Assembly (NCBI GenBank): GCA_030638625.1
Contig: DAOWEE010000365.1
Span: 1 to 30,170, forward strand
DNA: 30,170 nucleotides
Origin: Methanosarcinales archaeon
GTDB taxonomy: Archaea; Halobacteriota; Methanosarcinia; Methanosarcinales; Methanocomedenaceae
Direction of reading: 5' to 3'
The notes beneath the pieces were generated by a model. It was not told where the DNA came from and searched no databases. It worked only from the letters and a program-made list of their open reading frames with translations. Shown here one piece after another: positions 3,676 through 30,170 of this stretch; within the stretch, counting starts at the first letter, position 1; each line of letters starts with the position of its first letter. The position numbers and the translations under genes are program-made.

Positions 3676-4146
3676 CTATCGTGATTTCCTCTTAACGCCT
3701 ACACTAAGTCCCTTTCTGCCAGTGGACCGGGTTCTCTGACCCCTAACCTTGTGCCCACGGTCGTGCCTGACACCTTTATAGGAACGAGTCTTTTTAATGG
3801 TGTTCAGGTCTTCCAGTTTAATGAGCATTACATCAGTGCCGACAATATGCTTATCCTCACCAGTCATAATATCCTTCCGCCTGTTCAACATCCATACAGG
3901 CAGGATATTTTCAATATCGTCAATAGTCTTTTTCATGGCATCGATCTGGTCATCTTCCAGATATCCAATGGTTGCCTTTGGGTCCACGCCGGATACGTCA
4001 GAAATAATGCGCGCTGAACGTCGATTTATGCCCTTTATGCCAGTCAATGAATACTGTACGCTCTTTTTTCCTTCAAGATCAGTATTGGCGATACGTACAA
4101 TATGTCTAATTTCATCTGCTTCAGTATTATCTTTCTTCTTTGCCAT
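3676..4146 (-). CDS. rps13: 30S ribosomal protein uS13
   Basis: IRHIVRIANTDLEGKK...LTGIKGI...WMLNRRKD...SYKGVRH..GHKVRGQRTRSTGR, with a GGAGG RBS upstream. Confidence 0.98.
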   Translation of the reverse strand: MAKKKDNTEADEIRHIVRIANTDLEGKKSVQYSLTGIKGINRRSARIISDVSGVDPKATIGYLEDDQIDAMKKTIDDIENILPVWMLNRRKDIMTGEDKHIVGTDVMLIKLEDLNTIKKTRSYKGVRHDRGHKVRGQRTRSTGRKGLSVGVKRKSR

Positions 4147-4344: not shown

Positions 4345-5364
4345 TCATTCCGGCTGTACTATCCAGCATTGGGAATCACCCGCAAGGATGTCATCATTTG
4401 CAAATGCCCTGCATCTTGCACCCCCACATTCATCCTTCATCAAACAATTCCCACAAGTGCCTTTCAGGTTCTTACGGTCCCTGAGTTCATTTAATACATC
4501 AGACGTGTTCCAAATTTCCTCAAAACTTTGTTCCCTTACATTTCCAGCAGATTTTGACAGAAGCATGCACGGAAACACAGTACCATCGTTGAAGATACAG
4601 GCAATGGTGTTTCCTGCACCACAACAACTGCCGCTTCGGTGATAATTATCACTTTTACCACCTTTTTTGAGCAATATATCAAATTGTGGTACACCAATCA
4701 TTCTAACTGGCATATCAATTGAAGTCAATCGAAGCATCTCATCGACCACTTGCTGCCGAATCTGTGCATCCAGTTCATACTCATAACTCCCGCGCCCGGT
4801 CTTTACGAATTCAAAAGCCTCAATTCCCACAGCGCCCATATTTCTGGCAATGTTTAGCAGGTCAGATAGTTCATGATAGTTCTTTTTATGTATGCAGGGA
4901 TTTACCTGGAATGGTATCCCTTCGTCCCTCAGGTATCCAATCCCTCGTATTGCGTCATCAAAACATCCATTCACACATCTAAAACTATCATGGGTCTTTG
5001 CATTGGCACCATCAAGACTGACTGCGCACATCTTGAGGCCTGCATTTTTAAGGTCCTTAACCAGCTTTCTTGTTAAGGTAGTCCCGTTAGTACCCAGGAC
5101 CGGGATAAGCCCGATATCTTTAGCATGTTTTATCAGCCTCAGCAGGTCAGACCTGAGGGTAGGTTCTCCGCCATCGAAAATAATTAGTTTTGTACCCGCC
5201 TTTTTTACCTGACTAATAATCTGCAAAGCCTCCTCGGTAGACAGTTCGTTCAAGCCAGGATATGCCGAAGACCTGCTGTAACAGTGTTTGCATTTAAGGT
5301 TACACTGCTGTGTAATAGAAAAAGTGACTAGGATTGGAGGGGGTAATGCTATTTTTGCAGGCAT
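4345..5364 (-). CDS. Radical SAM/SPASM-domain protein (NirJ/AhbC/AhbD/PqqE-like)
   Basis: CX3CX2C motif TQQCNLKCKHCYS, then GGEPTLR and GTNGT. The C-terminal SPASM region reads SCCGAG...GTVFPC...GNVREQSFEEIW...CGNC...ECGGARCRA. Confidence 0.88.
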   Translation of the reverse strand: MPAKIALPPPILVTFSITQQCNLKCKHCYSRSSAYPGLNELSTEEALQIISQVKKAGTKLIIFDGGEPTLRSDLLRLIKHAKDIGLIPVLGTNGTTLTRKLVKDLKNAGLKMCAVSLDGANAKTHDSFRCVNGCFDDAIRGIGYLRDEGIPFQVNPCIHKKNYHELSDLLNIARNMGAVGIEAFEFVKTGRGSYEYELDAQIRQQVVDEMLRLTSIDMPVRMIGVPQFDILLKKGGKSDNYHRSGSCCGAGNTIACIFNDGTVFPCMLLSKSAGNVREQSFEEIWNTSDVLNELRDRKNLKGTCGNCLMKDECGGARCRAFANDDILAGDSQCWIVQPE

Positions 5365-5445
5365 GATTTTTTGTTAAAATGTTTTTATGTGAATATTATA
5401 TATGTATTTTAATATGTTTCACTCCCTTCAACCAGTCACATTATT

Positions 5446-5462
5446 ACAAGGACTTTATTATT
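5446..5462 (+). promoter_or_regulatory. Putative BRE/TATA promoter for ccmF
   Basis: ACAAGG-ACTTTATTATT in the AT-rich 150-bp divergent spacer between the radical SAM gene and ccmF. Confidence 0.35.
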
Positions 5463-5514
5463 AGATTATAATATAAGTAATATGGGATATTATTTGACGG
5501 AGCTATAAAATAAA

Positions 5515-7443
5515 ATGTTCAGACTCGGTGATTATCTTCTGTTTTCCAGTTTTATAGTATCAATAATAATCCTTTTTGACCATTTCTTCCTGAAACGAAA
5601 CCTTACATTACGGCTTCTTTACCTTGTGGTTTCACTGTTAAGTCTTGCCATAGTTCTTATTACCTACTATTTTATTACAGGGGATTTTACAGTCTACTAT
5701 GTCTGGCTCTACAGCAATACAGCGACTCCATTCATCTACCGGGTCGCAGGAGTCTGGTCCGGACAGGAAGGCACGTTCTTGCTATGGGTATGGATAATAT
5801 TTATCTCACTTCTATGGACTGCCAGGAAATACCAGACCGATGACGAATTTATAAAAAAAACCCTGATTGTAGGAGTATTGATGGGGACATTCTTCCTGAT
5901 ATTATCAATTAATGCTTCACCTTTTAAATCCATATATGATTACAAATATTTCTACCAGGGCATGGACATCTCAGACGGCAATGGACTTGACCCCATCCTG
6001 CTTAATTTCTGGAACACCATCCACCCACCTATGACCTTCATAGCATATTCTCTCTTAACCATGCCTTTTGCATACTCCATTGCACAAATGTGGCACCAAG
6101 ACCGACGCTGGGTATCGTTATCCTTGCCCTGGCTTCGGCTTTCATGGCTTTTTTTTGCAGTAGGTGTAGGACTCATCGGCGGACTCTGGACTTATGAAGC
6201 TGGCTGGAGTATATGGGCATGGGACCCGGTTCAAACTGTTTCGATAATTCCTATGTTTGTCATTACTGCTGTTTTGCATGCCGCCTCTCGTAAGCAGAAT
6301 CCCATGTTCGACAAACTCCTGCCAATTATTACATCAGCGTCCCTTGTCCTGGTGATACTTGCCACCTTCATTACCAGAAGTGGAATGTGGGGTTCAGTTC
6401 ATGAGTTCACTCAAACATCTAACAATATCCTGCTAATAGGGGCCCTGGTTCTGATGACTGTGGCAGTAATATATCTTTCAATAAAAAAATGGCCAAACCC
6501 CTCTTACACCAAATTTGCTAAAGGAGACAACTGGTTCATATATTCAGTAGCTGTATTCCTAATATTTACTCTGGTATTATTAATCGGCCTATTGCTGCCA
6601 GTATTAGTTTCACCCGATTTAACCATCACACCGGATTTCTTTAACCTCTGGTGCTATCCACTGGTCATATTATTGTTTGTTTTACTGGGTATATGCAACC
6701 TTTACGGCATAATTAGTCAACAGGTTATGCAAAGATTATTGATTATAACTTTATTGACATCATGTATACTGGCTTTCATTGTCCCTTCAGCGGATTTCCA
6801 GTTCATTTTAACCAGTAATGGTCAGGCAACTTCCATCTTCACCAGTCTTGGAACTCATTTCTCTATATTGGGTATGGTACCTGCTGTCGTATTTGCTTCA
6901 GGTGGCATTTTCAAACGAATAAAGCATGATATCGGATATGGAATAACTGCCCGCCAATTTGGAATACATCTCATTCATTTTGGCATAATACTGGCACTAA
7001 TAGGTGGAGTTATAAGTACCCAGTTCCAGGAAAAATATACCCTTGAATTCAACATGAATGAAATCGGGCAGGTAAGGCAAAATGCGGGTGAATTTTCAGT
7101 ATCAACATCCCATTTCATAGTGAATGAAGGAGAAAAGGACAGTTGGGTACAGACGGCTACCTTTGATATCTATAAAGACGGTAGAATGATAGGTTCAAAG
7201 GATGCAATTTACATGCGGGATATAGGGGGAGTAGAGTATACCCTCCCTTCAATTATAAGGGGCCTTTCCAAAGATATCAAAATCGAATATCACGGATTGA
7301 CTCCAAAAAAGAATGAGCCACCCACTATACCTGTTACTATTAAAGTGGTCCCATTTATCAATCTGTTATGGGTGGGTATGGCGGCTATTGGTCTGGGTGC
7401 ATTTATCGTTTTTTCTTACCCAGGTAAACCAGGAATCCGATAA
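5515..7443 (+). CDS. ccmF: Cytochrome c biogenesis heme lyase CcmF (System I), divergent WWD motif
   Basis: 642-aa polytopic membrane protein with YYVWLYS, WSGQEGTFLLW, NGLDPILLNFWNTIHPP, a WWD-like WTYEAGWSIWAWDPVQT, and TFITRSGMWGSVHEF. Confidence 0.93.
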   Translation: MFRLGDYLLFSSFIVSIIILFDHFFLKRNLTLRLLYLVVSLLSLAIVLITYYFITGDFTVYYVWLYSNTATPFIYRVAGVWSGQEGTFLLWVWIIFISLLWTARKYQTDDEFIKKTLIVGVLMGTFFLILSINASPFKSIYDYKYFYQGMDISDGNGLDPILLNFWNTIHPPMTFIAYSLLTMPFAYSIAQMWHQDRRWVSLSLPWLRLSWLFFAVGVGLIGGLWTYEAGWSIWAWDPVQTVSIIPMFVITAVLHAASRKQNPMFDKLLPIITSASLVLVILATFITRSGMWGSVHEFTQTSNNILLIGALVLMTVAVIYLSIKKWPNPSYTKFAKGDNWFIYSVAVFLIFTLVLLIGLLLPVLVSPDLTITPDFFNLWCYPLVILLFVLLGICNLYGIISQQVMQRLLIITLLTSCILAFIVPSADFQFILTSNGQATSIFTSLGTHFSILGMVPAVVFASGGIFKRIKHDIGYGITARQFGIHLIHFGIILALIGGVISTQFQEKYTLEFNMNEIGQVRQNAGEFSVSTSHFIVNEGEKDSWVQTATFDIYKDGRMIGSKDAIYMRDIGGVEYTLPSIIRGLSKDIKIEYHGLTPKKNEPPTIPVTIKVVPFINLLWVGMAAIGLGAFIVFSYPGKPGIR

Positions 7444-8407
7444 TTACCACCAAAAGCAGACCGGCCAATAGATTATCATAAGATTGTGTTGATGTAGTTG
7501 TATCCATGATAAATATGTCACCACTGCCTTGCCTGTCAGACCAGAATGCTATTGTAGTGTTATCAGGGCTCCAGATATTGCACATATCTATACCATCATA
7601 ATGAGTCAACTGCCTGAGATTGCTGCCGTCAGCATCCATAATCCATATCTCCATGTTGCCACTTCGCTCAGAATCAAAGGTAATATATTTTCCATCATGG
7701 CTGAACGATGCACCCCAATCTTCGGCAGGATGGTCAGTAATCTGTGTCAGGTGGGTCCCGTCATAATCAATCATCCAGACATCACCGTTACCGGTACGCT
7801 GGGAGCGGAACAGGATTCTCCTGCTGTCCGATGCCCAGGAAGGAATCATATCATCGGCCGCAGAAGTAGTGACCTGGGTCCGGTTCGAACCATCGGAATC
7901 AATGACCCAGATATCTGAATTTCCTGACTGGTCTGAAGTGAACACTATTTTTGTACCGTCAGGGCTGAAAGATGAGTAGAAATCATAAGTGGGATTCGTA
8001 GTCAACTGGGTGAGATTAGTACCATCAATGTCGATTTTCCAGATATCCATGTTGCCAGAGCGTTTGGAAGTGAAAGTGATTGTTCTGCCATCAGGACTCC
8101 AGCCCTTAGGCAGGGAATCTTCGGACGGGTGTGTGGTAAGACGGGTAGTTTCAAGGGTGGTGATGTTCACTATCCAGATATCAGCATTTCCACCAAAAGT
8201 AGATTCAAAGGCTATATATTGCCCGTCAGGGCTGAAACTGGGCGCCCGTTCAAAACTATCGGTTGAGGTAATCCTGATTGCATCGTCAGATGCCGCTGAA
8301 GCTATTGCGCTGCCAGGAAATATACTGATACTTAGCAGAATGAACATTGGAAGTATTGAAAGTATTAATAAAGTAGCACCAGTTTTTGTTCTTTCAGGAA
8401 TCCACAT
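7403..8407 (-). CDS. Secreted TolB-like (PD40/WD40-like) beta-propeller protein with C-terminal membrane anchor
   Basis: N-terminal hydrophobic signal, then six or so repeats of (F/W)SPDG..I.F.S.RSGN.DIW..D.DG....QLT. The C-terminus is LLAGLLLVVIIGFLVYLGKKKR. Overlaps the ccmF 3' end by 41 bp. Confidence 0.9.
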   Translation of the reverse strand: MWIPERTKTGATLLILSILPMFILLSISIFPGSAIASAASDDAIRITSTDSFERAPSFSPDGQYIAFESTFGGNADIWIVNITTLETTRLTTHPSEDSLPKGWSPDGRTITFTSKRSGNMDIWKIDIDGTNLTQLTTNPTYDFYSSFSPDGTKIVFTSDQSGNSDIWVIDSDGSNRTQVTTSAADDMIPSWASDSRRILFRSQRTGNGDVWMIDYDGTHLTQITDHPAEDWGASFSHDGKYITFDSERSGNMEIWIMDADGSNLRQLTHYDGIDMCNIWSPDNTTIAFWSDRQGSGDIFIMDTTTSTQSYDNLLAGLLLVVIIGFLVYLGKKKR

Positions 8408-8472
8408 TGTTTTGAAATACCGCCTCTTTAATTAACAACATTTATATTATATTTGACGATATTTAAATATTT

Positions 8473-10104
8473 ATGGAAATGGATACGGTGAAAAAGAAAT
8501 TGAAGGGAATCAGGATTCACCATATCCAATTATCAGTTCTTTTGGCATTATCCTTCGCTCTTCAATTCTCCAAATTGGACTGGGGAATGGTCACTAATAA
8601 TATCGGGATTAACGGACTTAACGCTTTTCATATCGTTGAACCGAATCTTGTGAACATACCCCTTCAAATGATGCAATCAGGTGACCTGAACCCGCACTTT
8701 TTCGATGAACCAAGCCTGTTCTACAATTCGATGTATGTTGTTTTTTCAGTAATTACAGGCATCATTGGACCATTATCATTTGTGGAATATATCAGGATTG
8801 CCCGGTTAATGACTATTCTTCTGAGTGTTGGGGTGGTTTTCCTGACTTATCTTACCGCAGAAAAGATGTGCAGTAGGGAAGTGGGCCTTTATGCAGCACT
8901 TTTCATGTCAATAAATCCATATTACCTCTGGTTCTCTTCCATAGCAAAAGAAGACCCGATGATGGTATTTTTCATCACTCTGTCCATGTACTTCTTTGTC
9001 AGGTATTTGAAAGATAGCAATCAGAGAAATTTTCTTTTTTCGATGGCGTCGGCCGGACTTGCTGTATCCACCAAATATCCTGCCGGAATGATGCTATTTT
9101 TACTGCCGGTATTATATTTATTTTACAATCAAACCGAACCGGTCAAAGAAAGAATTGTGGCCATAAGCAAATCCATTGCAATATACGCAGGAGCTTTCGT
9201 AATCGGCACACCTTTTTCAGTCTTGTCATTTGGAGAATTCATCAGAGGCTCTGTGGGTGAGCTGGGACATTATACTACAGGTCATCCTGGTTTTGAACAT
9301 TTTACCTGGTTCGTGCATGTACAGACCATTACCGGCCTGTGGGATGCAACCAATATATGGGGTAAGAACGGATATGGTCTTATCCTTATATTGTTTATAT
9401 CCGGAATGGTCACGATAATTTCTCAGCTGGAACATAATACAGAAAATAAACATAATGCAGAAAAACCAGGTAGATTTAACTGGTATTTAATCACAGGCTG
9501 GATATTATTAACTGTGCTGGTCTTCGGTTTCATAATTAAAGTCAAGATGGGGAACCAGATGATGATTCTGACCCCTGCTGCGATGGTGGTTTCAGGATAT
9601 GGATTTGCTGCTCTGTTACATAGATTGCCGAATCAGAATCTAAGGCGCATTATTGGAAGCGCGATCGTCCTCTTGATTTTCACATATGCCCTATCAGGTA
9701 TTGTGAGCAGTGCGAATGATAACCGGTATTATGCGGCTGATTGGCTTACTGAAAATGTCCCACCCGAAGCTATGATTGCCACGACCCTTTTTGTTCATGT
9801 ACCTGATGAATTCATTGAGGTATCTTTTCTTCCTATAAATACAGATTACCTGGAAAACTCAGATTATGATTACATTATCCTATCTTCATGGGACTTCGAG
9901 CGATATCTTGACTCACCTGATACGTATCCAGTCGAGTCAATGTTTTACCGGACCGTACTTGACGGAAATACTAGCTATAGACCGACAGCCAGTTTCAAGC
10001 GCACCGAAAATGCACGACAGAGAACCCTGAACTTTGGATTTGGTGCATTGACAAAAAGCGATTATCGCGGGGAAGTGGATATTTTTATTTTCCAGCGGAT
10101 GTAG
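8473..10104 (+). CDS. GT-C fold membrane glycosyltransferase (ArnT/PMT-like, GT39/GT83-like)
   Basis: Polytopic membrane protein with acidic first loop HFFDEPSLFY, then ARLMTILLSVGVV, ALFMSINPYYLWFSSIAKEDP and GLAVSTKYP, followed by a C-terminal soluble domain. Confidence 0.82.
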   Translation: MEMDTVKKKLKGIRIHHIQLSVLLALSFALQFSKLDWGMVTNNIGINGLNAFHIVEPNLVNIPLQMMQSGDLNPHFFDEPSLFYNSMYVVFSVITGIIGPLSFVEYIRIARLMTILLSVGVVFLTYLTAEKMCSREVGLYAALFMSINPYYLWFSSIAKEDPMMVFFITLSMYFFVRYLKDSNQRNFLFSMASAGLAVSTKYPAGMMLFLLPVLYLFYNQTEPVKERIVAISKSIAIYAGAFVIGTPFSVLSFGEFIRGSVGELGHYTTGHPGFEHFTWFVHVQTITGLWDATNIWGKNGYGLILILFISGMVTIISQLEHNTENKHNAEKPGRFNWYLITGWILLTVLVFGFIIKVKMGNQMMILTPAAMVVSGYGFAALLHRLPNQNLRRIIGSAIVLLIFTYALSGIVSSANDNRYYAADWLTENVPPEAMIATTLFVHVPDEFIEVSFLPINTDYLENSDYDYIILSSWDFERYLDSPDTYPVESMFYRTVLDGNTSYRPTASFKRTENARQRTLNFGFGALTKSDYRGEVDIFIFQRM

Positions 10105-11113
10105 TGCTTCTTCGTTTGCTCAGGAATATGAAGGACATGAACAGGCCAAATATGGACAGAATTGCATAGGATGAAGGGATGTTCTCCTTTTTATTCAAAT
10201 CCACTAACCAGATGTCAGACCCACCGTATTGTTCGCTGTCTATGTCGATTATCTTGTCCTGGAAAACTATCTTAGTCCCATCCAGACTCCAGGAAGGGGA
10301 ATAATAATCTGTGTTCACGTTTCCTGGGACCACTACGGTCTTATTGGAACCATCTGCATCCATCACCCATATATCGCCGCTTTCTTTTGTGTATGCATGG
10401 TATGCAATTTTAGTCCCGGCCGGACTCCATGAAGTAGACATCAGGTTCGGGCAGAAATTATCTGGCGGGCACCGTTCATAATGAGCATCAAAGGTCAGTT
10501 GGGAATATTCTCCAGTTTCAACATCCAGTTTCCACAATTGCTGGTCTCCGGACCTTGTGGATACAAAGACGAGATACCTGCCGTCAGGGCTCCATGAAGG
10601 AACGTCATCATCACCTGCCCCTGTGGAAAGCTGCATCTGGTTATTTCCGTCAGCGTCTATTATCCATATTTTGAGAGCACCGGACCTGGTAGAGGTAAAG
10701 GCAATACTACCATCGGGACCCCACGCAGGATTTCCATCCCATCCCGGATTGTCAGTAATCTGTCGTTCATTAGTTCCATCCACATCTATTGCCCATATTT
10801 CAGAATTTCCGGTCCTGTCAGAATAAAAAACAATACTATTGCTGTCCGGACCCCAGGAAGAGTATAAGTCTAATGAAAGGTTGGTGGTCATTTGTGTCAG
10901 ATTACTCCCGTCAGTATCCATGACCCAAATATCTGCACTCTCACCCCTATCTGACTGGAAGGCTATCTTACTTCCGTCCGGACTCCAGTCCGGTTTTGAA
11001 TCCGGCACCGGGTCATTGGTCAATTTTTTTATGTGAGATGTCTCTGAAGCAGACCCGACCATAATCAGGGATAAAATAACACACAGTAGTAATAGTAGTA
11101 ATATCTTATTCAA
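10085..11113 (-). CDS. Second secreted TolB-like (PD40) beta-propeller protein with C-terminal anchor
   Basis: TTG start and signal peptide, then repeats of P.WSPDG..IAF.S.R.G..DIW.MD.DG. The tail IPSSYAILSIFGLFMSFIFLSKRR resembles a degenerate PGF-CTERM signal. Confidence 0.9.
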   Translation of the reverse strand: MNKILLLLLLCVILSLIMVGSASETSHIKKLTNDPVPDSKPDWSPDGSKIAFQSDRGESADIWVMDTDGSNLTQMTTNLSLDLYSSWGPDSNSIVFYSDRTGNSEIWAIDVDGTNERQITDNPGWDGNPAWGPDGSIAFTSTRSGALKIWIIDADGNNQMQLSTGAGDDDVPSWSPDGRYLVFVSTRSGDQQLWKLDVETGEYSQLTFDAHYERCPPDNFCPNLMSTSWSPAGTKIAYHAYTKESGDIWVMDADGSNKTVVVPGNVNTDYYSPSWSLDGTKIVFQDKIIDIDSEQYGGSDIWLVDLNKKENIPSSYAILSIFGLFMSFIFLSKRRSTTSAGK

Positions 11114-12005
11114 TGTCCATTCCTTCTATTCCGTCCATTCCCTCTAGTCCTTCCATTACTGTCATTAAGGCTTCAGGTATCATTTCTATTAAAGATAAAA
11201 TTGATGAATCCGGCTTGATATTACTGTAAAGTCCGGCCAATCTGTTAATTTTGGCAGCCATACAGCATGCCTTTTCTAACGTTTCTTCCTGAAATACCAG
11301 GGCTGATACAATACCTGTCAGGGTATCACCGGTACCGCCAACAGCTTCCATGGCAGGGATATTGGGCGAGTCTACCTTCTGGATAATATTGCCGCTTCGG
11401 GTTATATAATCTGTACTGCCTTTAACCAGCATAGTGTCAGGACACAGGCCGTTCTGCGATGCATTAGGTATCAGTTCAGGCATGCGGTCCCCTGCAAAGT
11501 CGTAAAGGTTCTCATTAACAAACATGGGATGTACCGCTTCAACATCGGCAAGAAATGCCAGCTCTCCCTTGTCAGGAGTAAATAAATCAAATATATGTCC
11601 TAATCCCGATATCTTTGCTCCGTACATGGCTCCTGCATCTGCAATCAGTTTTGGATTTTGGCCACTATCTTCAAGAGCAAAACCAAAATCAACCATTCCC
11701 TCAATCAGTGGTGTGATATAATGCAATGTGATTACATCAGGGTGAAGTGAAAAAATATCATCTTTTAGATATTTGTAAAGGCTGATGCTACCGTTTCCCT
11801 GGCCAGTATCTCCTGCAAGGACGCAGTATGGCAAGTCAATATCAAGTACGGAACACGTTGATACGGCAGCGGCAACCATCGCGGGTGTGCCGGCAGAAAT
11901 GTCTATATGTTTTCCCCCGATAACCAGTATGCCATCTACAATCTCCGCATTGCCACTGATAATCCCGGCATCGTCGTCAGGATATGTGCCTACTAATGTC
12001 AGCAT
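11106..12005 (-). CDS. Ribokinase-fold / YjeF-C (NAD(P)HX dehydratase-like) protein
   Basis: ADAGAMY.AK...DLFTPDKGELAFLAD...HP...MLVKGSTDYI...MEAVGGTGDTLTGIVSAL, carrying the GGTGD anion-hole motif. Coupled to the upstream DUF3343 gene by an ATGCTGA overlap. Confidence 0.75.
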   Translation of the reverse strand: MLTLVGTYPDDDAGIISGNAEIVDGILVIGGKHIDISAGTPAMVAAAVSTCSVLDIDLPYCVLAGDTGQGNGSISLYKYLKDDIFSLHPDVITLHYITPLIEGMVDFGFALEDSGQNPKLIADAGAMYGAKISGLGHIFDLFTPDKGELAFLADVEAVHPMFVNENLYDFAGDRMPELIPNASQNGLCPDTMLVKGSTDYITRSGNIIQKVDSPNIPAMEAVGGTGDTLTGIVSALVFQEETLEKACCMAAKINRLAGLYSNIKPDSSILSLIEMIPEALMTVMEGLEGMDGIEGMDIE

Positions 12006-12523
12006 CCACTCTCCTCCATGAATGTTCTTTTAGCTTCTGATAATGCCCTGTCAAGCAGGTATGCGCACAAAGAAGACCCGATGTCCAGGGGTTTAATGGG
12101 CGAGGCCAGGTTGGTATTTATCAACTGTTGGGCAATGTAGGGAATATCCGGGCATCCCCCACCCGAAACATTAACTATGTCTCCATTGGTTTTTGAGAAC
12201 GTAAGTTTCATATTGCCGGATTTGACCATAATAAATCCGTCAATCTCTTTTTTTGTGGTCAATTCAACAGGTTTTTGTCCGCACGTGTAAGCTATCAGGT
12301 CAATATAGTATATACATTCATTATCCAACAGTTTCATGACGTCTATCTGCTGGCCGGCATCTACCATTACAGATAAGTCACACCCTTTACGAATATCCGG
12401 AGGGGGTGCCGCCAGCATTACTTTAAATCCGTGCTTTTTCAGGATATACTCTGCACGTATAGCACTTTTTGAGTGTTCAAATAATATGGTTGCACTGCTA
12501 TCTGGTTCAAAGTTTTGTTTCAT
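11999..12523 (-). CDS. DUF3343-domain protein with Cys-containing C-terminal domain
   Basis: ILFEHSKSAIRAEYILKKHGF...APPPDIRKGCDLSV (DUF3343/Se-S carrier-like), followed by VNVSGGGCPDIPY...SLCAYLL. Confidence 0.7.
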   Translation of the reverse strand: MKQNFEPDSSATILFEHSKSAIRAEYILKKHGFKVMLAAPPPDIRKGCDLSVMVDAGQQIDVMKLLDNECIYYIDLIAYTCGQKPVELTTKKEIDGFIMVKSGNMKLTFSKTNGDIVNVSGGGCPDIPYIAQQLINTNLASPIKPLDIGSSLCAYLLDRALSEAKRTFMEESGC

Positions 12524-12525
12524 AT

Positions 12526-13047
12526 CTATATCCCAAATATTATGGAAATGATGGGTTTCACAATAAACCCGAAGACGAGGGCAGCAAAATAAAATCCCAG
12601 GATGTAAACAAGTGAGCCTTTATCTCCTTCCGATGCCCTGATATGCTGCCTGAAAGGACACCCATCGGCCATGACAGAGAACAGGCCAACACCAGCCCCT
12701 CCAATGATTGTAAGAATCACAATTCCAAATACCGTGTTACTGCTTTCATGGTCAACATTTCCTAATGGATTCGTACACGGATTATACAGGCTTTCAATGT
12801 TACCGCTGAGTCTGCTGGTAAAGGCCGGGAAATCCTGTGCACCTCCTCCTGCCAGATGGAGGACAAAAAAACCCACGGCTGCTGCTGTAATAATGGCAAT
12901 AACACCTTTCAATAGATGCGTGTCCCTCATCAGTGTGAAGTCCCTTATCCCACCGATTGTGCAAAAACCTGAGCGCTGTCCCATATAACCGATGATGAGT
13001 CCAACAATGAATGTTCCGGTAGAAATTATTGGGTCTATGAGCCCCAC
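12526..13047 (-). CDS. YeeE/YedE-family sulfur-compound transporter, half-size subunit B
   Basis: GLIIGYMGQRSGFCTIGGIRDF and GLFSVMADGCPFRQHIRASEG carry the FC and GC motifs of the family. Start placed at GTG 13047, overlapping the upstream stop; the track extends it to 13092. Confidence 0.8.
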   Translation of the reverse strand: MGLIDPIISTGTFIVGLIIGYMGQRSGFCTIGGIRDFTLMRDTHLLKGVIAIITAAAVGFFVLHLAGGGAQDFPAFTSRLSGNIESLYNPCTNPLGNVDHESSNTVFGIVILTIIGGAGVGLFSVMADGCPFRQHIRASEGDKGSLVYILGFYFAALVFGFIVKPIISIIFGI

Positions 13048-13499
13048 CTCCTGAGTATAGCAATCCCTGCAATAACACCGACAACCATCCACAGACCGCC
13101 GAACAATGCCAATGGTTCACCATATGCAATCCTGAGCAATAGACGGATGGGACAGGCAGCAAGCAGGAGTGCAAAGGTCATAACCAAAAATCCCAGCAGG
13201 AACATTCTGGTATTACTATCAACCCCACTGTTAGGCTGAACATTGTGCCTTCGGGCAGCCAGATGTGCCCCCGCCATAATGCCAACTACAGTCAACAGGG
13301 GAGTAAATAATCCTGCATTTGTCACTTCTATAATGTTTGAAGAAATAAGATGGTTAAATATCCATCCCAGCATATCACGGCTATGGCAGGCGACACATAT
13401 CCCGTATGCCTGGGGGCTGGACCAATTGAATGACCACTGGGCTGCCACGGCCAATAACCCGATGGCTGTTCCCGTTATTGCTGGTGTTATCCTGCTCAT
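13035..13499 (-). CDS. YeeE/YedE-family half-size subunit A with CXXCH-containing loop
   Basis: About four TM helices with PQAYGICVACHSRD, PLLTVVGIMAGAHLAA and LLAACPIRLLLRIAYG. Start at ATG 13499, 4 nt after the upstream stop; the track extends it to 13541. Confidence 0.72.
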   Translation of the reverse strand: MSRITPAITGTAIGLLAVAAQWSFNWSSPQAYGICVACHSRDMLGWIFNHLISSNIIEVTNAGLFTPLLTVVGIMAGAHLAARRHNVQPNSGVDSNTRMFLLGFLVMTFALLLAACPIRLLLRIAYGEPLALFGGLWMVVGVIAGIAILRRWGS

Positions 13500-13503
13500 G
13501 GAC

Positions 13504-14007
13504 TTACCTTTTAAAGCGTATCCTGCAGACTGCATCTCCATCTGGTATCATTGTTTCTTTGGTCATTTTTGCGTCAGGGAAAAATTCGAAAAAGAGAGCT
13601 TCTGTTGCCTTGAAGTAAAGTCTGCATGCTTCCTTGATAAGGTCAGGTGATAGGCCCAAATCCTGCCATGCTTTGAACTTTGCACATGAAGAATGTTCAA
13701 GGACCACCTCATCAGGAGATACAATTTCCATTTTAATTGGAGAGATGATACTGTTGGTCTGCCCCCTTAGAGACATGCCGTAATATTTCCCAAAATCTTT
13801 GAAGGATTCAACCTTAAAGCCAGAATCTTTCATTGCCTTAGCATCCAGACGTCCCTTTTCTTCCATGGCACGTTCAATCATCTTTAATCCATTTGAACCT
13901 GATATTTTGTAGATCTCATTGATAATAGATCCGAACATAGTAGCATTATCAGACCCCATAAAATGAATGAATTCCCTACAGTTTTTCACCGCATTTTCGT
14001 TATGCAT
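13504..14007 (-). CDS. L-2-amino-thiazoline-4-carboxylate hydrolase-like / V4R-fold protein
   Basis: 167 aa with pattern HSSCAKFKAWQDLGL...EAC...FFP..KMTKETMIPDGDAVCRIRF (three conserved-looking Cys). First gene of the minus-strand run. Confidence 0.6.
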   Translation of the reverse strand: MHNENAVKNCREFIHFMGSDNATMFGSIINEIYKISGSNGLKMIERAMEEKGRLDAKAMKDSGFKVESFKDFGKYYGMSLRGQTNSIISPIKMEIVSPDEVVLEHSSCAKFKAWQDLGLSPDLIKEACRLYFKATEALFFEFFPDAKMTKETMIPDGDAVCRIRFKR

Positions 14008-14082
14008 TTTAATTCCTCAAATGTTAGTATTATTCTTCAATATATGTTAAAATTATTTAAATCAGATGTGTGTTAACCAATC

Positions 14083-14160
14083 TCTAAACAGTGAACACTA
14101 TTAGAAATGTGTGGTGCAGTAAATGTAAATTTCGACGGTTAACAGTGCAAACTGTTTAGA
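14083..14160. promoter_or_regulatory. Paired palindromic operator-like sites AACAGT-N4-ACT(A/G)TT
   Basis: AACAGT-GAAC-ACTATT (14087-14102) and the perfect AACAGT-GCAA-ACTGTT (14141-14156). The outer 10-mers TCTAAACAGT (14083-14092) and ACTGTTTAGA (14151-14160) are exact reverse complements. Confidence 0.55.
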
Positions 14161-14187
14161 TGTTTTTAGGACTGTGTAGATATTAAT

Positions 14188-14201
14188 ACAAGGTTATATA
14201 T
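14188..14201 (+). promoter_or_regulatory. Putative BRE/TATA promoter of the giant cytochrome gene
   Basis: ACAAGG-TTATATAT about 80 nt upstream of ATG 14281 and about 30 nt downstream of the second palindrome. Confidence 0.55.
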
Positions 14202-14280
14202 GTCTGAAAATCTGAATGTATTATGGTTAGACTGTGGGCTCTGATTACAGTATATTAACAACGCGCTAAAGGGTGGTCGG

Positions 14281-29200: not shown

Positions 29201-30170
29201 TCGAATCAATTGAGAATGAAAGTGTTTGTATCATCTGCCATGACCCTGTGCCATTATTTAGCAACACTAGCCTGGAAGCAAGAGATGACCTCTTACTCGA
29301 ACCCCATGCCACCCAGGTGGCAGGTCACGGTAATGTCAGTTGCTTTGTATGTCACGGTCACAGCCCTGCCCAGTTAACCCTGAATTTCGGTGCGGATTGT
29401 GTAGGCTGCCATATTAATGAAGCAGTGGCTCCTGTAAATTCCACTAACGGCACCGATATCCCACCCACACAGGTCCTGGGTCACGGGAACACCGAATGTT
29501 CAGAGTGCCACGGGCATACCAACTCACAACTCACTTTTGTAGGTGAAACCGCGGAAGAATGTATGGCATGCCATGAAAATGCGTCCGCTGAAGTTAAGTT
29601 ATTGGAATATGAGGACCCCGTATCCAATGGAACCGTGCCCTTAAGCCAAAGCGGTAATGTGTGGACAGTAACACCCCCACAGGTTGTGGGTCACGGCAAT
29701 GTTACCTGTCTTGAGTGCCACACCCATGCTCCCAGCGACTTCGTAAATGTTGAGGATTTCCTTGGTCCCGATTGCACAGCATGTCATATGAATGAAAGCA
29801 GGAACGTATCATTGATCAATGACACCATACCAAAGAACAGCAATACCGTTGTAGTGGATAATTCCAATTCTACCTGGGTTGTCACATCACCAATAGTCCT
29901 GGGTCATGGTAATGCATCCTGTGCTGAATGTCACGGGCATACCAATTCTAACTTGACTTTCCTGGGCAGCACTATCAGTTCATGTATTGACTGCCATGAG
30001 AACAGTTCCAGGGAATCATTGCTGCTGGATGATACCATACCTGAATCAGATACTACGACCATAATCAACGATACTGTTAATCCCAAGATAGTAAATCCAC
30101 CGCAGGTAGATGGGCATGGAAATGTGAGCTGCTTTGTATGCCATGACCACGCACCCAGTGATTTCAGCAA
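14281..30170 (+). CDS. Giant secreted adhesin-like multiheme c-type cytochrome (>5,296 aa, at least 23 CXXCH; 3' end beyond window)
   Basis: Manual translation of frame +1 from ATG 14281 finds no stop to the window end. It has a signal peptide (MIKTNGILLKQVLVGYILISIIILSVFASITPGLA), a Pro/Thr linker, many Ig-like repeats, FG-GAP repeats, and discoidin- and CBM-like sandwiches. CXXCH motifs start at 27082, 27295, 27334, 27892, 27949, 28522, 28570, 28741, 28795, 28870, 28930, 29008, 29119, 29227, 29341, 29398, 29497, 29560, 29707, 29773, 29920, 29983 and 30130. It is absent from the supplied ORF track. Confidence 0.95.
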   Translation, partial: MIKTNGILLKQVLVGYILISIIILSVFASITPGLAEGLEETAIDNSFELVSQNGLNILYRLFNPLMGTASELANIANDSSNTLDITNSTLNTSTNSTPAPTPTSTLAPTLTPTSIPTLTPEPVFNSSEETSSNNPQTTSPKKTHVTGNVKDHENQPVSTNIYVTGHDNRNRMIHTSSQNFNLELEEGDNVVFDAGTKGVTARFKIKGNSSNSIITLDNFGKAKPAITGTPQFNSMKFVEVHADNTDYETVTITISYSEDELSGFDEGLLTIYHYTGGQWIPTISHVDRASNTITATVNSLSYFAVGQGSGINIFARFDSTVNPDDTITVSGGVYYDNLTTVPDADINITIQTTAISTDITTDSLGNFKATLPPPASTGSYNLKINAVKGAMDANTTSNLQVTSTPLFRITGTMQIDNEDVVASDANITISSELPAQSVSDSAQLTLTGTTSVTGTKIYNLFTDTKVDDGINATGTYTFLVDSLTSGEVTKNWASIYLYAISYTGLSVAEESYDTYLDGTYKDSSSFVKPWDQSTWYWNNSLATGDILYNTTQTVDVVTPNPSTLVRFNLTGDMHINFTSSGLSKPSNSKLYADNVLLLSTTGDLTTENINLTGFLGDSNDLIVTSDTKGGISYALTSQFHKYMNASVVDDGVNYTVTLTATNNNSESWYSPAFGYTVPQGAGNFVIIDKDNNELNVTSSCTLPSDGGEVDIPASVIGEIKSGIIRTFTLSYSLKQLDVTTRPFADTYMPGQTVDIYTDVLYNGSVVSDATVTITIKDPLDVTVFNGPATWNGKNYSITKTTNDTWLIGVYHVNASASKTVDSVLRTGINSTSFVEKRLILYVQANGPYPPLRNITLSGRAYYSDESAEGGKTVNISVGGINTTATTNATGHFQTIVPGMAVGSYPVIANITNGYGLTDSDSDTVLVLDTPFFILIDTELSETSGQALLEPDHNFTVNIPNSMDVLSSTITLTGITQKTEEYDISPPPISMLSIGTTQFDFVNGTFTVIVPPYRSVTVNDVSMTVTAFPQGSGVQESVFNNSIDGIDVGESRYVVPDTPSTHTWTDDITARVTPGTAHDVRITKLDTFTIDYKFLVMMHVNRTGFLDTPLNPRAYVVGNIIYAEPGDMLTNSHTTDITKFLEAGSNSVNFVNDRNALVNYIIQTRVRDWNYTQETIAEIPSRFEIENVLYAAATDQKLMNPEVRHPLKRLASNLTVYDIDNNTDITASCTVADNELFIPTNLIGPINAGDTRLFNVSYDAPRPNISPSLNTSVCNHNDTILISVDIEFYGVPMTDANVSVTIANNTNTTWQGTLTHTGSGTYTVLYQIPANATLGIYNVTVSAYNESTNMDDEVVSYQLSQLTITPFTIGPFVTGNGGNINGNVNDSRTDAPINSATVEITISNQSGIVNQTEVYSNVAGYFSFVWDATMAGDYLLTITANDSDLTIGTLEQPIAVEYDVVLVPNRTDYNVNYTATLNVSVHDLGSIDVPGANVSVLIDIPAAGNETLSTGNGRLSYLGGVYTGTFNTTANMGTYNYTVNVSNVTANGTITGNDVGSFRVSDLHITEMSDKLVYIVDENVTVWGSVEDLETGLFVENGTYNISLFNSSGFVTSRSGSILTVPDTIGAALYDEDTFEVAGDDWNSRNNEDPVRDSSTAYAGSWSLHMTWPGTTAWGGRNFEGTNNLEAGQTSSGYSTTDYPYMSMAYRISPDDKINMLILVNGAWRSLDVTQGINTTGSYPTVANWGSVNSDDQWHWTEIDLDGQLDASMGIGNHQITGIIWYPNSAIDGYLTGDFWIDDFRISNNSIATSYEETFSGLPADPYTAMVDISYLTLVGANSSDFTINYNVNSSIPSPLYSVGRDVNINISVFDTGSIPVTGANLTVNITNSTGLVKSISGSNITDNNNGYYNTTYITEIEGDFNISVHVEKGSAVGDAPVLPFRVTQFYVDVAPEFQWYEVGDNVTFTTLTGRLWDLQGAPKWANVTIQVFGPVGTLIQNITLTNQYDNFTHSFYLGSTNNSGTYSIQVNASEIESGGNLAASNTSSFNVEYFVDSATNRSQYNTDDTVNVTLNIKNSTTNINSASVDVNVTYIGPSDWWNASYWNFDREYRVGISTVNTYNRSREDTYIVVRGSDLASAGVSLTNLPINSTRVIAYSTQENLSSRNEVARVVSDINGDGYLNTSDEIIFLANFSASESKNYWLYYDYGYDITASPEYTIPLKLQLYLAEEFIITSDYYARVYYKHSNRDGTFGGYVQIDDNNYYARGAVIADFDNDGDYDVVSGDRYNLFFHEWTDVGTFTKTSVTPTFSASNYLMDMATADFDEDGNMDFIVGGNNDDLYLYEGDGMGDFTKITITTNAPGTAGRGKDAGDVNEDGHMDFVYAENPTGKVYAYYGNGAGTFAAPVELVTLPDTDPYGVALGDFDNDGHLDIIANGGAGGAYHIYSGDGTGIFVDEGMKFDVNRLGGVDAFDYDHDGNLDVIHTTYDTEYTYYRAGNGNFGFGSLSLGVNGYNVMGISAPPMQDIMIPSIGIKQNLSHTQVGSSLATGLGNGNYNAEFTLSDAQLGIYLVETDVTSPWPGDDAVTFFVRSLDEVNNTYGPHNFNGTHQSPILPVIISGTIRDSEFNNTLNNAYANITIRYPNNTVAAYQSITTDANGIFNHDFTSQFNSNSPAGTYNVSILVNDGGIIQLIETYLTVSDVYSSWADPAKDYRVAIILNNSANSTPVTYNERGFVLELPGSVAQSSVAITDINGNAVGNSLIWDNANTINVTLDNFSLGMFEGGLVYIYFDRDAQLPPDNTSLTSSICPLIEGAIEGYWMVITNDLAIYNPSTTAQITANLTLANGTQLTGSTVNFSVYYPDMALAYGPHNIVSDPANISVSGNSNTLSYSIPNLKGIYTVVVNATSPNGIPRTEISTFNVGGLGVTADTDRSYYNTRDDVWLTVDVTDLGVPVNNALVTVDFNDPSGLLPYEYNEINSTNSDGIAIIHWPMISPDSPVGNYSITVNANTANDSGYNGSQTIEIDNYVTTLDLNDNLVSLTNPVTASGSTTHNGSEIPSWVNISVTYQSAFIDDTVPYGASTGNQWIWDYNNVHSGSYSHLQEVQGPASVQHIFYDAYSGYRAGSGENISVWVYVDSIPETVDEIMVQFHANDSWNHRAYWGVDNIPLGTNNTTSRQYIGPLPAAGTWYELVLTSSQVGLDGLVVDGMAFAVNETSSNVARVWFDEVTFEFANTHDSYLENQNVSTPYSYVISNTFTEGFNDTFTTFNSTEWDNSSTSIHNISAEWMELNGNGLDFNANFSGSTTYSRTAYPVLTADFMTDNLSGGLVVAVEGNPTSGYRRHGIYIDKADGILKTQTYDLDGWHYENLFTPEIGKWYTMEVRFYATESQLFVYSRDDSSRPMPDKADSTYNLTDWNPNFHFWTFDNTGYIDNAAVTTRSNTSALPWVGDYIVTGLSSYSNLYTVNVSTILVSNLNITVNTGDSYDLTIGNPELNNVTINGTVQDNRSGVPRPSPVLVYVTAPDGLISVYNLQTDVNGSFTVSFTRPSLIGTYDVTVTAKDTAGTTGRTDTSFDIQIGSTIAPTIETINLMDTAILTVELFDDVIFDDMEQVTSNWSYRAGTTGTVRNMSEEVHDRTRLYHKSGTQSQKVDYYVTKSTNEYMYLESGLGPIDVSQVNNITFWLYLDLVDAFDAVALVLENDATGTSSDERIYGQNPVPGWNYYSFNVSDFGMDLTHAHYLTVLIDDDNSASEVETRGSVYIDDFKVINGNSITGASVSINITKPGMSVLSYSTPADITDLGNGRYSLDFAGTDEYGNYNISAISTSDGYTSTATTQFIVDRLNVSPVLLETPYIVGDTGNFSVSVHSNMSTPFDGTVSLNLTLPNGTSVNYNTSAFSQSTENYARTGTAGGSGFGSVTRINDGSFVYPATTAACIGDYAQITWAQPVTINQVMVYYDTNKWPTSYRIQVLDTDGVTWVDKKVVNGFTTTSFPYVIDDIPTSTTKGVRISYETSNNAQNIYIFEMWVYNTAATFTPLLPISGDYTAQFTALDSKDVSGTTSITVPVNFNVETVFDKLSYDPGDNATVSISVFNGTHYVPGVSVSSQLSYIGNGSLIASNSTTTDSNGTVDVMYQIPEDYSSYYINSSVAHNGITGLDSEVTTSAHLKMWIDPAEVLVGHPSWNADLTPEEYRDISIHAEFLTKAGHILDDQTITANIYKYDGTLVTSLPLTGVDGLYTADYTIAGNSPEGTYWVELDKYPGINEYFSVMEWGCTRCHINPGMDYNHYYAHAITSGAYGNSDGPVSPSNFSKEYVHEVHPLVDPAPAGTGGSNCGYHNNARDVNCVKCHLTEVLPSACPDCHNSGQDKWSNVLSEDYGADVHAGINVDTAKNKIANSSHGGNPSFAVDSNDDTYWSPDGVTNQIMEIDLDGAYYVDGVRIAMSNYKSTYTVQGLNNGSWITLISSTTYSNYDNEQLYTFSSQNISRVRFTVSSWSRVWTGTGYCSSPTHTAAVLTEQPKLKSLNVYLPNNVSLTLLNPDTHDSCQVCHGGDISNDIQPTIPDCTDCHPESSGSGMQVMPDNMSTVSRELEDYEDVSDIIVYSAPGFPVSTVSLTASTDQAVEGTKSGKLDYSMALGVGRIYIDQSDLEFTNATSIKFWLYGNPADDNTQFQVSIRNNKSGKWHYNTAQHLNWSGWKEVEIPITSLSELEILYISHADMLRIQLENYDSDSGTIYIDDLHVERKGTHTQYQEIECGTCHESVHNTQYSYDCENCHQTQTHGNMTASEPTCVNVDCHHYMENGSLIVRNSTNETTLVEIPMDGAKISECGVCHSLAEPHDKQWNYVCMDCHRDSEHGQVDESYTDYEKASTCLKCHNDPHDLQNELSAKGGCNGCHQHRIHGQNSLTTPYNESIHLDCLRCHGNPVNDSEPIPVGLGHPGEIHITQTYGLTAAECMFCHENATNSYELHTGLNVDLADTTLVESIENESVCIICHDPVPLFSNTSLEARDDLLLEPHATQVAGHGNVSCFVCHGHSPAQLTLNFGADCVGCHINEAVAPVNSTNGTDIPPTQVLGHGNTECSECHGHTNSQLTFVGETAEECMACHENASAEVKLLEYEDPVSNGTVPLSQSGNVWTVTPPQVVGHGNVTCLECHTHAPSDFVNVEDFLGPDCTACHMNESRNVSLINDTIPKNSNTVVVDNSNSTWVVTSPIVLGHGNASCAECHGHTNSNLTFLGSTISSCIDCHENSSRESLLLDDTIPESDTTTIINDTVNPKIVNPPQVDGHGNVSCFVCHDHAPSDFS
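14569..14646 (+). repeat. Pro/Thr-rich low-complexity linker within the giant ORF
   Basis: TPAPTPTSTLAPTLTPTSIPTLTPEP. Confidence 0.85.
21085..21720 (+). repeat. Five FG-GAP/VCBS-like Ca2+-binding repeats (beta-propeller) within the giant ORF
   Basis: ADFDNDGDYDVV, ADFDEDGNMDFI, GDVNEDGHMDFV, GDFDNDGHLDII and FDYDHDGNLDVI at about 50-aa spacing. Confidence 0.9.
27082..30144 (+). other. Multiheme region of the giant ORF (23 CXXCH plus one CX4CH within the window)
   Basis: Motifs in order: CTRCH, CVKCH, CPDCH, CQVCH, CTDCH, CGTCH, CENCH, [CVNVDCH], CGVCH, CMDCH, CLKCH, CNGCH, CLRCH, CMFCH, CIICH, CFVCH, CVGCH, CSECH, CMACH, CLECH, CTACH, CAECH, CIDCH, CFVCH. Confidence 0.93.
29311..30170 (+). 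repeat. Tandem diheme repeat (xQV.GHGNxxCXXCHxH...CXXCH), alternating A/B types, at least 4.5 units
   Basis: The His of GHGN starts at 29326, 29482, 29692, 29905 and 30115, giving spacings of 52, 70, 71 and 70 codons. Confidence 0.9.

Follow-up and report, generated by a model that had tools for sequence, protein, structure and literature searches.

It is an open question how anaerobic methanotrophic (ANME) archaea and Methanoperedens build the enormous multiheme proteins that are thought to pass electrons to metal oxides or partner bacteria; the sole published genomic clue so far is, to our knowledge, a CcmF paralogue beside the multiheme cytochrome (MHC) of type B, MHC-B. The question is raised again by a stretch of DNA from an ANME-2 archaeon, a whole contig (C250) of 30,170 nt, hereafter the window, from a metagenome-assembled genome (G000) that is 84% complete and divided into 385 contigs. 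A heme lyase of the CcmF family, a radical SAM enzyme, a membrane glycosyltransferase and two anchored beta-propellers are encoded there upstream of a giant adhesin-cytochrome gene. From gene content and sequence comparison, these genes and those that continue on a second contig are read as an accessory cytochrome-maturation and surface-handling island, with a probability of about 0.55; a specific role of the module for the giant cytochrome is proposed more tentatively. The preliminary description of the window had let the link rest on proximity only. Because the module genes recur together in distant relatives across three families, the link is raised from proximity to co-inheritance and co-occurrence.

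The island is about 33 kb long and reaches from the radical SAM gene (rSAM-W) through a gene for an MTAP-type phosphorylase, between the gene of ribosomal protein S13 and that of a PD-(D/E)XK nuclease; the window contains the part from position 4345 onwards, up to the end of its contig. The final 141 bases of the window coincide exactly with one end of contig C246, and the giant open reading frame joined in this way encodes 6,943 aa with 66 CXXCH, 2 CX3CH and 3 CX4CH motifs, i.e., about 70 hemes. The window part of the frame, which runs off the contig end, accounts for 5,296 aa (23 CXXCH and one CX4CH, all after residue 4268), and the C246 part (joined coordinates 30171-38368) contributes 1,647 further codons with 43 additional heme motifs, of which 42 are CXXCH. 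The giant gene is followed on C246 by genes for a 222-aa CcmC (CcmC2), for a CcmE (CcmE2) that carries the archaeal CxxxY motif as VKCPTKYEP, and for the MTAP-type phosphorylase, after which the nuclease gene forms the right flank. In G003, a 100% complete genome of the same genus (g1, family 1), the giant orthologue of 6,597 aa with 67 CXXCH is collinear over its entire length, and its alignment passes through the C250/C246 junction. A join produced by a paralogue was considered and rejected, since over its whole length the C246 frame shares 80% identity with the C-terminus of the giant protein encoded on contig C65 of G003, compared with only 65% identity, over part of the length, with a giant-like paralogue on contig C12.

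The borders of the island become apparent from relatives that carry or lack it. The same block, from RpoD to a gene resembling ATC hydrolases, is found in G003, in which the ATC-like gene is interrupted by a contig break (45-bp overlap), with the giant gene coming next. In the island-less genomes G007 (same genus) and G013 (same family), the S13 gene is located about 255 bp from the PD-(D/E)XK gene, and in G001 and G006 its immediate neighbour is the gene that G003 has after its giant gene. Since S13 abuts right-flank genes in the relatives without the island, the stretch of about 33 kb is present or absent as one piece; gain or loss with the giant gene, which had been set out as a check on the link, thus concerns the module and the giant gene together, as one island within the genus.

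The lyase of the island (CcmF-W) is a divergent member of its family. In Pfam, it scores 68.8 bits for Cytochrom_C_asm (PF01578) and 50.6 bits for CcmF_C (PF16327), both over the cut-offs; in NCBIfam, it remains below the subfamily cut-offs (177 vs 569 bits for TIGR00353 and 176 vs 927 for TIGR03145). The histidines of HPP, LHA and SVHEF are retained and aligned with those of all other clades, and an invariant His488, possibly the equivalent of TM-His2 of Escherichia coli, lies in a hydrophobic segment. The WWD motif reads GGLWTYEAGW-x-IWAWDPVQT, a clade-specific signature that is one residue shorter and lacks the WGG glycines, which bears out an early separate remark on a variant motif. In a tree of 56 CcmF rows, CcmF-W falls into a clade of its own with 13 rows (approximate likelihood ratio support, SH-aLRT, of 99), so that the phylogeny of the lyase, another point that had been marked for checking, is not ordinary. 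The CcmFs located directly beside large MHC genes form another clade (12 rows, SH-aLRT 99) from ANME-2a/b-like, g4 and Methanoperedens genomes, and CcmF-W is also apart from a widespread clade of proteins of about 770 aa. The MHC-adjacent clade presumably corresponds to CcmF2 (Chadwick et al. 2022, PLoS Biol, PMC9012536).

The remaining Ccm genes of G000 place the island as a second line of maturation. The genome contains nine Cytochrom_C_asm matches, among them at least four other full-length CcmF paralogues and one housekeeping-type CcmC split over two contigs, in addition to three CcmE genes and a single CcmB, on contig C150; a further ccmF and housekeeping ccm genes, whose existence had been left to be checked, are therefore present elsewhere. 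Another of the nine matches belongs to a ResB-like and CcsA-like System II pair (C378:2217-5470, locus L001) beside a cytochrome fragment with at least eight hemes, and its presence alongside the Ccm genes means that Systems I and II coexist in this archaeon. Of 40 relatives, only G003 yielded orthologues of CcmF-W, rSAM-W, the glycosyltransferase, the ATC-like protein and CcmC2, and canonical AhbD was found almost everywhere. The possibility that the island is the housekeeping ccm locus was rejected, as CcmC2, CcmF-W and the ATC-like protein were not found in 39 of the 40 relatives and nearly all carry a different, housekeeping CcmC. Contrary to the preliminary description, the system is not self-contained, because heme export by CcmAB (CcmB on C150) and the canonical Ahb pathway (AhbD on C195, 585 bits) are encoded elsewhere in the genome. 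The module is read as an accessory one that does not suffice by itself, giant cytochromes being matured by other routes as well.

Co-occurrence was surveyed in 284 genomes of the order, in which only about three carrier lineages are clearly independent. CcmF-W orthologues are present in seven genomes: G000, G003, G281 ("Methanosarcinaceae archaeon E21"; family 4, genus g31) and four genomes of family 3, genus g6, namely G070 (Methanoperedenaceae archaeon FeB_1), G072 (Ca. Methanoperedens sp. MnB_21), G101 and G103 (uncultured archaeon LFW-280_2_2 and LFW-280_3_2). The membrane glycosyltransferase, GT-C, and the first propeller, PD40a, have orthologues in the same six genomes, all of them CcmF-W carriers from three families, and are always adjacent to each other. 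Homologues of the heme-free N-terminus of the giant protein identify a giant-family cytochrome in nine genomes, including all six PD40a/GT-C carriers, so that the giant-family gene is found in 6/6 of these genomes vs 3/278 elsewhere. The expected phylogenetic co-occurrence was hence obtained: six of the seven CcmF-W genomes carry GT-C and PD40a, and all six have a giant-family cytochrome.

Adjacency is conserved across the same three families. The radical SAM gene lies beside CcmF-W in eight of the nine loci examined, metagenome contigs included, with a small cytochrome gene between the two in G281 (locus L042) and in locus L045. The order rSAM, CcmF-W, PD40a, GT-C, PD40 is shared by G000, G003, G103, G072 and L045; in G101 it is PD40b, GT-C, PD40a, CcmC2, CcmE2; and in G281, rSAM, the small cytochrome, CcmF-W, PD40a and PD40b are followed, further on, by ATC, CcmC2, CcmE2, MTAP and the giant gene, with an additional free-standing GT-C/PD40a pair elsewhere. 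GT-C and PD40a are thereby counted next to ccm paralogues in three different arrangements, the free-standing pair of G281 included. Orthologues of the second propeller, PD40b, occupy the same position in G003, G281, G103, G072 and G101, the block from the carbohydrate-kinase-like gene to the ATC-like gene stands beside the module in G003 and G281, and in G103 at a distance of about 10 kb, and an ATC-like gene adjoins CcmF-W or CcmC2 in L044, G070 and G101. Chance proximity, i.e., neighbours without any evolutionary or functional link, would accord with the mixed orientations of the genes, which are not one operon, as first described and as the strands of the reading frames agree; it is nevertheless highly improbable in view of an adjacency conserved across three families, identical phyletic patterns, and gain and loss as one island.

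The giant protein has features of an exported client. Its N-terminal 4,267 residues are heme-free and match MG2, CarboxypepD_reg, FG-GAP, Filamin, F5/8-C (discoidin) and CBM11 in Pfam; the remainder is composed of MtrC/MtrF-like, c7 and c3 heme domains. N-x-S/T sequons number 281, compared with 123 +/- 10 in shuffled sequences, and are enriched in both the heme-free and the heme-rich parts, which points to dense N-glycosylation, presumably by an AglB-type enzyme and not by the PMT-like GT-C. As an exported protein rich in sequons, it is a likely substrate of the module. No S-layer match was obtained with Pfam in any part, no CXXCK motif is present, and the chain ends in ...YWACSTCH with no hydrophobic tail or C-terminal helix detectable. 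The heme-free region of 4,267 aa also has no pectin-lyase match in Pfam, the type C definition in PMC9012536 being based on InterPro superfamily models.

A second giant-like paralogue is located in G003 (C12:12198-17594, locus L087), with more than 1,798 aa, 47 CXXCH and 72% identity to the main giant protein of that genome. It is this paralogue, and not the main giant gene, that precedes CcmC2, CcmE2, MTAP and PD-(D/E)XK in G003, an arrangement that suggests duplication or recombination between giant genes.

The radical SAM enzyme can be classified only as a paralogue. The best NCBIfam matches of rSAM-W are NirJ2 (269 bits) and AhbD (TIGR04545, 259 bits), in full-length alignments, and the cut-off is 500 bits; the initial label of a NirJ/Ahb-like enzyme is consequently supported as to the Radical SAM/SPASM architecture and the best matches, although both equivalog cut-offs are failed. 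The CX3CX2C motif is present as CNLKCKHC at residues 21-28, together with a C-terminal cysteine cluster and SPASM, and identity to the canonical AhbD on C195 is 36%. Compared with solved structures, only generic SPASM enzymes are matched, the best being PqqE with 82 bits. Another AhbD-like radical SAM/SPASM gene of G000 (C300:148-1734, locus L049; 393 aa, 135 bits on the AhbD model) adjoins the third CcmE paralogue, with CxxxY, and constitutes a second pairing of radical SAM and ccm genes in this genome.

Both propellers carry an N-terminal signal or anchor and a C-terminal hydrophobic helix with a basic tail; this helix is conserved in PD40a, which is 62-86% identical across the three families. 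With 306 bits (PD40a) and 215 bits (PD40b) on the TolB model of NCBIfam, against a cut-off of 343, and with no N-terminal TolB domain among their Pfam matches, they are TolB-like propellers only and not TolB, as judged from these model matches. GT-C exceeds the Pfam cut-offs for PMT_2 (56 bits; cut-off 26.1) and PMT (54.5 bits; cut-off 22.7). In its extracytoplasmic loop 1, Asp71 and Glu79 are invariant, and the local sequence is FDEPS in g1 and G281 and F(I/L)EPS in the Methanoperedens orthologues. A structure prediction for GT-C from a six-row alignment was too poor to place the acidic residues of loop 1 (mean pLDDT, the predicted local confidence, of 43.9), and a complex prediction for GT-C with PD40a scored 0.00 and gave no verdict.

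A course of maturation can be proposed from these parts. CcmC2 would load heme on CcmE2, with its CxxxY motif, and CcmF-W would ligate this heme to CXXCH, with the second Ccm line presumably fed by the single CcmAB exporter of the genome. On the cytoplasmic side, as judged from what is known of the families, the AhbD-like rSAM-W may provide extra or modified heme, and the MTAP-type phosphorylase may clear 5'-deoxyadenosine or methylthioadenosine (MTA), by-products of the radical SAM reaction. Exported cytochromes of very large size, the giant one among them, might be the targets of the second Ccm line and the propeller/GT-C trio; outside the membrane, the propellers would hold or scaffold the chain in its unfolded or exported state, and GT-C would glycosylate either this chain or the propellers. 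A bolder and quite unlikely form of the proposal makes PD40a, GT-C and PD40b an archaeal extracytoplasmic assembly machine for giant adhesin-cytochromes, a functional analogue of the bacterial CcmH/I apocytochrome chaperones and of the propeller lipoproteins of nanowire clusters; a private line of CcmC2, CcmE2 and CcmF-W would accompany it, a modified heme or a dedicated heme pool would come from the AhbD-like enzyme, and the island would be a transferable kit for surface conduits of about 70 hemes.

Several observations weigh against an island that matures and handles the giant cytochrome. The CcmF-W core of G070 comes without GT-C, PD40a or a giant-family protein and stands beside a different cytochrome of 3,346 aa and 50 hemes. 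The giant homologues of the Methanoperedens genomes G072 (C86, L101/L102; 5,428 aa, 52 CXXCH) and G103 (C87, L107/L108; split into frames of 1,964 and 3,441 aa) are on other contigs, unlinked to the module, and each directly precedes a lyase of the CcmF2-like clade, so that CcmF-W need not be the lyase of these proteins. G071, which is 99% complete, has a giant homologue, and no CcmF-W, GT-C or PD40a was found in it with these queries; G005 and G107 likewise have a giant homologue without the module, but these genomes are incomplete. The co-occurrence counts overstate independence because the carriers within a genus are kin, rSAM-W fails the AhbD cut-off, Asp78 in loop 1 of GT-C is not conserved, and a small pentaheme cytochrome found in four loci, discussed below, is an alternative client of rSAM and CcmF-W. 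Moreover, the streamlined System I of Methanosarcina acetivorans needs only CcmABCEF and no extra factors (Gupta et al. 2022, eLife, PMC9084895); extra factors are therefore not generally required. The early designation as a dedicated maturation locus is thus upheld in part, by the separate lyase clade, co-inheritance and co-occurrence, and weakened by the Methanoperedens giants with another CcmF and by G071; in the same manner, synteny with giant homologues holds in G000, G003 and G281 and fails in G072 and G103.

Much of this evidence would also suit a mosaic, in which the genes travel together and work independently: the second Ccm line would boost cytochrome c in general, PD40 and GT-C would perform ordinary envelope glycosylation, YedE, encoded between PD40b and the giant gene, would import sulfur or selenium, and the giant gene would have landed in or next to a ccm locus. 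Besides the displaced Methanoperedens giants and the lone giant homologue of G071, each lineage has its own gene order from the ccm genes to the giant gene, L044 shares with G070 a ccm core without PD40 and GT-C, and the GC content of the island (0.445, close to 0.454 for the genome) gives no sign of a recently acquired coherent cassette. A mosaic is nonetheless unlikely, considering that PD40a and GT-C are found only where a giant-family gene is present (in the proportions given above), that in each of three arrangements the two genes have ccm paralogues as neighbours, and that genomes of the genus carry either the complete set with the giant gene or none of it.

The small cytochrome leads to a different client. 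It is membrane-anchored, about 165 aa long (163-182), has five CXXCH motifs and lies beside rSAM and CcmF-W in G281/L042, L045, L044 and G070, with homologues elsewhere in G072 and G103. NrfE (NrfEFG) is a CcmF-family lyase for the CXXCK site of NrfA; by analogy, rSAM-W and CcmF-W might be a pair for the small pentaheme cytochrome, or for CX3CH and CX4CH sites, with the giant protein incidental. The clade-specific WWD loop of CcmF-W and the two CX3CH and three CX4CH sites of the giant protein are in keeping with such a pair. It is an improbable explanation, however, as neither G000 (searched by tblastn) nor the 100% complete G003 yielded the small cytochrome, although both keep rSAM and CcmF-W, and as all five motifs of this cytochrome are canonical CXXCH. 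CcmF-W resembles NrfE as a CcmF-family paralogue for a particular client, and its best NCBIfam matches are the CcmF/NrfE models; it differs in its score (177 vs 569 bits), in the lack of an NrfF/G or CcmH partner, and in a giant protein without CXXCK.

In returning to the accessory island that is preferred here, the closest published counterpart is CcmF2, a paralogue that adjoins MHC-B of ANME archaea and was proposed as a specialised lyase for huge or unusual apoproteins (PMC9012536). In both cases, which concern ANME-2 and Methanoperedens, an additional CcmF is linked in the genome to an extracellular multiheme cytochrome of very large size; the pairing of a CcmF paralogue with a giant cytochrome is already known, and the CcmF-W island is a further form of it. 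Unlike CcmF2, CcmF-W belongs to a separate clade and is located about 7 kb from the giant gene rather than beside it; the island adds CcmC2, CcmE2, an AhbD-like radical SAM enzyme, two PD40 propellers and GT-C, and it does not include the signal peptidase and 8xTMH genes of PMC9012536. The giant protein also differs from the ANME MHC types A, B and C in having no detectable S-layer domain or C-terminal helix. None of the terms propeller, TolB, AhbD, NirJ and glycosyltransferase occurs in the main text of PMC9012536, and no publication was found that links CcmF with radical SAM or TolB with Methanoperedens.

Other known systems share individual parts. In Desulfuromonadia, the OmcE nanowire clusters lie beside resB/ccsB, two beta-propeller lipoproteins and, often, GT39 enzymes (mBio 2026, PMC13712944), and a large-MHC operon of SEEP-SRB includes a beta-propeller protein (Skennerton 2017, as cited in PMC12246660). 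The island resembles the OmcE clusters in combining a cytochrome gene with heme-maturation genes, two membrane-attached propellers and GT39-type enzymes, a likeness of gene content only; these systems differ in being bacterial and in using System II (resB/ccsB), lipoprotein propellers and an outer-membrane beta-barrel. With AhbD and NirJ2, rSAM-W has in common the radical SAM and SPASM architecture aligned over full-length models, and it departs from them in its scores and its identity to canonical AhbD, as detailed above. In common with System I of M. acetivorans, the island has CcmC, CcmE with CxxxY, and CcmF, without CcmH/I/D; unlike in that species, CcmC, CcmE and CcmF are duplicated on an accessory island and CcmB is single. 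Since extrachromosomal elements of Methanoperedens carry Ccm systems (PMC13444090), such elements are, by analogy, a possible route for the patchy distribution of the module.

The locus thus adds a defined candidate set to the question of how these proteins are built, comprising a second CcmC/E/F line, an AhbD-like enzyme and a propeller/GT-C pair whose distribution tracks one giant adhesin-cytochrome family across three archaeal families. The carriers include organisms of Mn- and Fe-reducing enrichments, which are open to sampling, and the question is therefore testable.

Features of the window and sites of the small pentaheme cytochrome (window positions unless a locus or contig is named)
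Feature	Position	Strand	Basis or remark
Ribosomal protein S13 gene	3676..4146	-	Pfam Ribosomal_S13; left flank, outside the island
rSAM-W, AhbD/NirJ2-like radical SAM/SPASM paralogue	4345..5364	-	Pfam Radical_SAM + SPASM
CcmF-W, CcmF/NrfE-type heme lyase paralogue	5515..7443	+	Pfam Cytochrom_C_asm + CcmF_C
PD40a, membrane-anchored TolB-like beta-propeller	7403..8407	-	Pfam PD40, 187 bits
GT-C fold membrane glycosyltransferase, PMT_2/PMT-like	8473..10104	+	Pfam PMT_2 + PMT
PD40b, second anchored propeller	10085..11113	-	Pfam PD40, 143 bits; last gene of the minus-strand unit
Five overlapping genes: carbohydrate-kinase-like, Se/S-carrier-like, YedE C-half, YedE N-half, ATC-hydrolase-like	11106..14007	-	Pfam + NCBIfam
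Divergent intergenic region, 273 bp, AT-rich, between the ATC...PD40b unit and the giant gene	14008..14280	.	sequence read
Giant adhesin/multiheme cytochrome gene, first 5,296 codons	14281..30170 (open frame 14281-30168)	+	continues on C246
Small pentaheme cytochrome	L042:1716-2216		
Small pentaheme cytochrome	L044:625-1116		
Small pentaheme cytochrome	L045:415-915		
Small pentaheme cytochrome	G070:C42, 22207-22755		stitched coordinates

All genes named in the preliminary description are found at their places, and Pfam and NCBIfam agree on them; the five minus-strand genes between PD40b and the giant gene had been passed over. These five and PD40b form one tightly overlapping unit that is divergent from the giant gene, and the ends of PD40b overlap both the carbohydrate-kinase-like gene and GT-C. 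An operon for sulfur/selenium trafficking, with the split YedE, belongs to the island as well. To the left of position 4345 lies a housekeeping S13-S4-S11-RpoD operon. DNA of the window is contained in cold-seep metagenomes; the datasets with the 10-kb block or with ccmF alone are cold-seep DNA metagenomes of one study, probably the one from which the sequence comes, and no RNA dataset is listed among them.

A k-mer comparison of the divergent intergenic regions yielded only AT-rich promoter-like words and a weak ATTTGACG(G/A), and no specific shared regulatory motif was established. The sequence ATTTGACG(G/A) is situated about 15-30 nt upstream of the start codons of ccmF and GT-C (window 5480-5500 and 8445-8460) and may be a chance occurrence in AT-rich promoter DNA. 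Finally, YedE is split into two overlapping half-genes (window 12526-13541, minus strand), and the N-half contains a CVACH that scores as a heme motif; as the same single motif is flagged in the orthologues of G003, G281 and G103, it is probably a conserved cysteine site of YedE and not a heme site.

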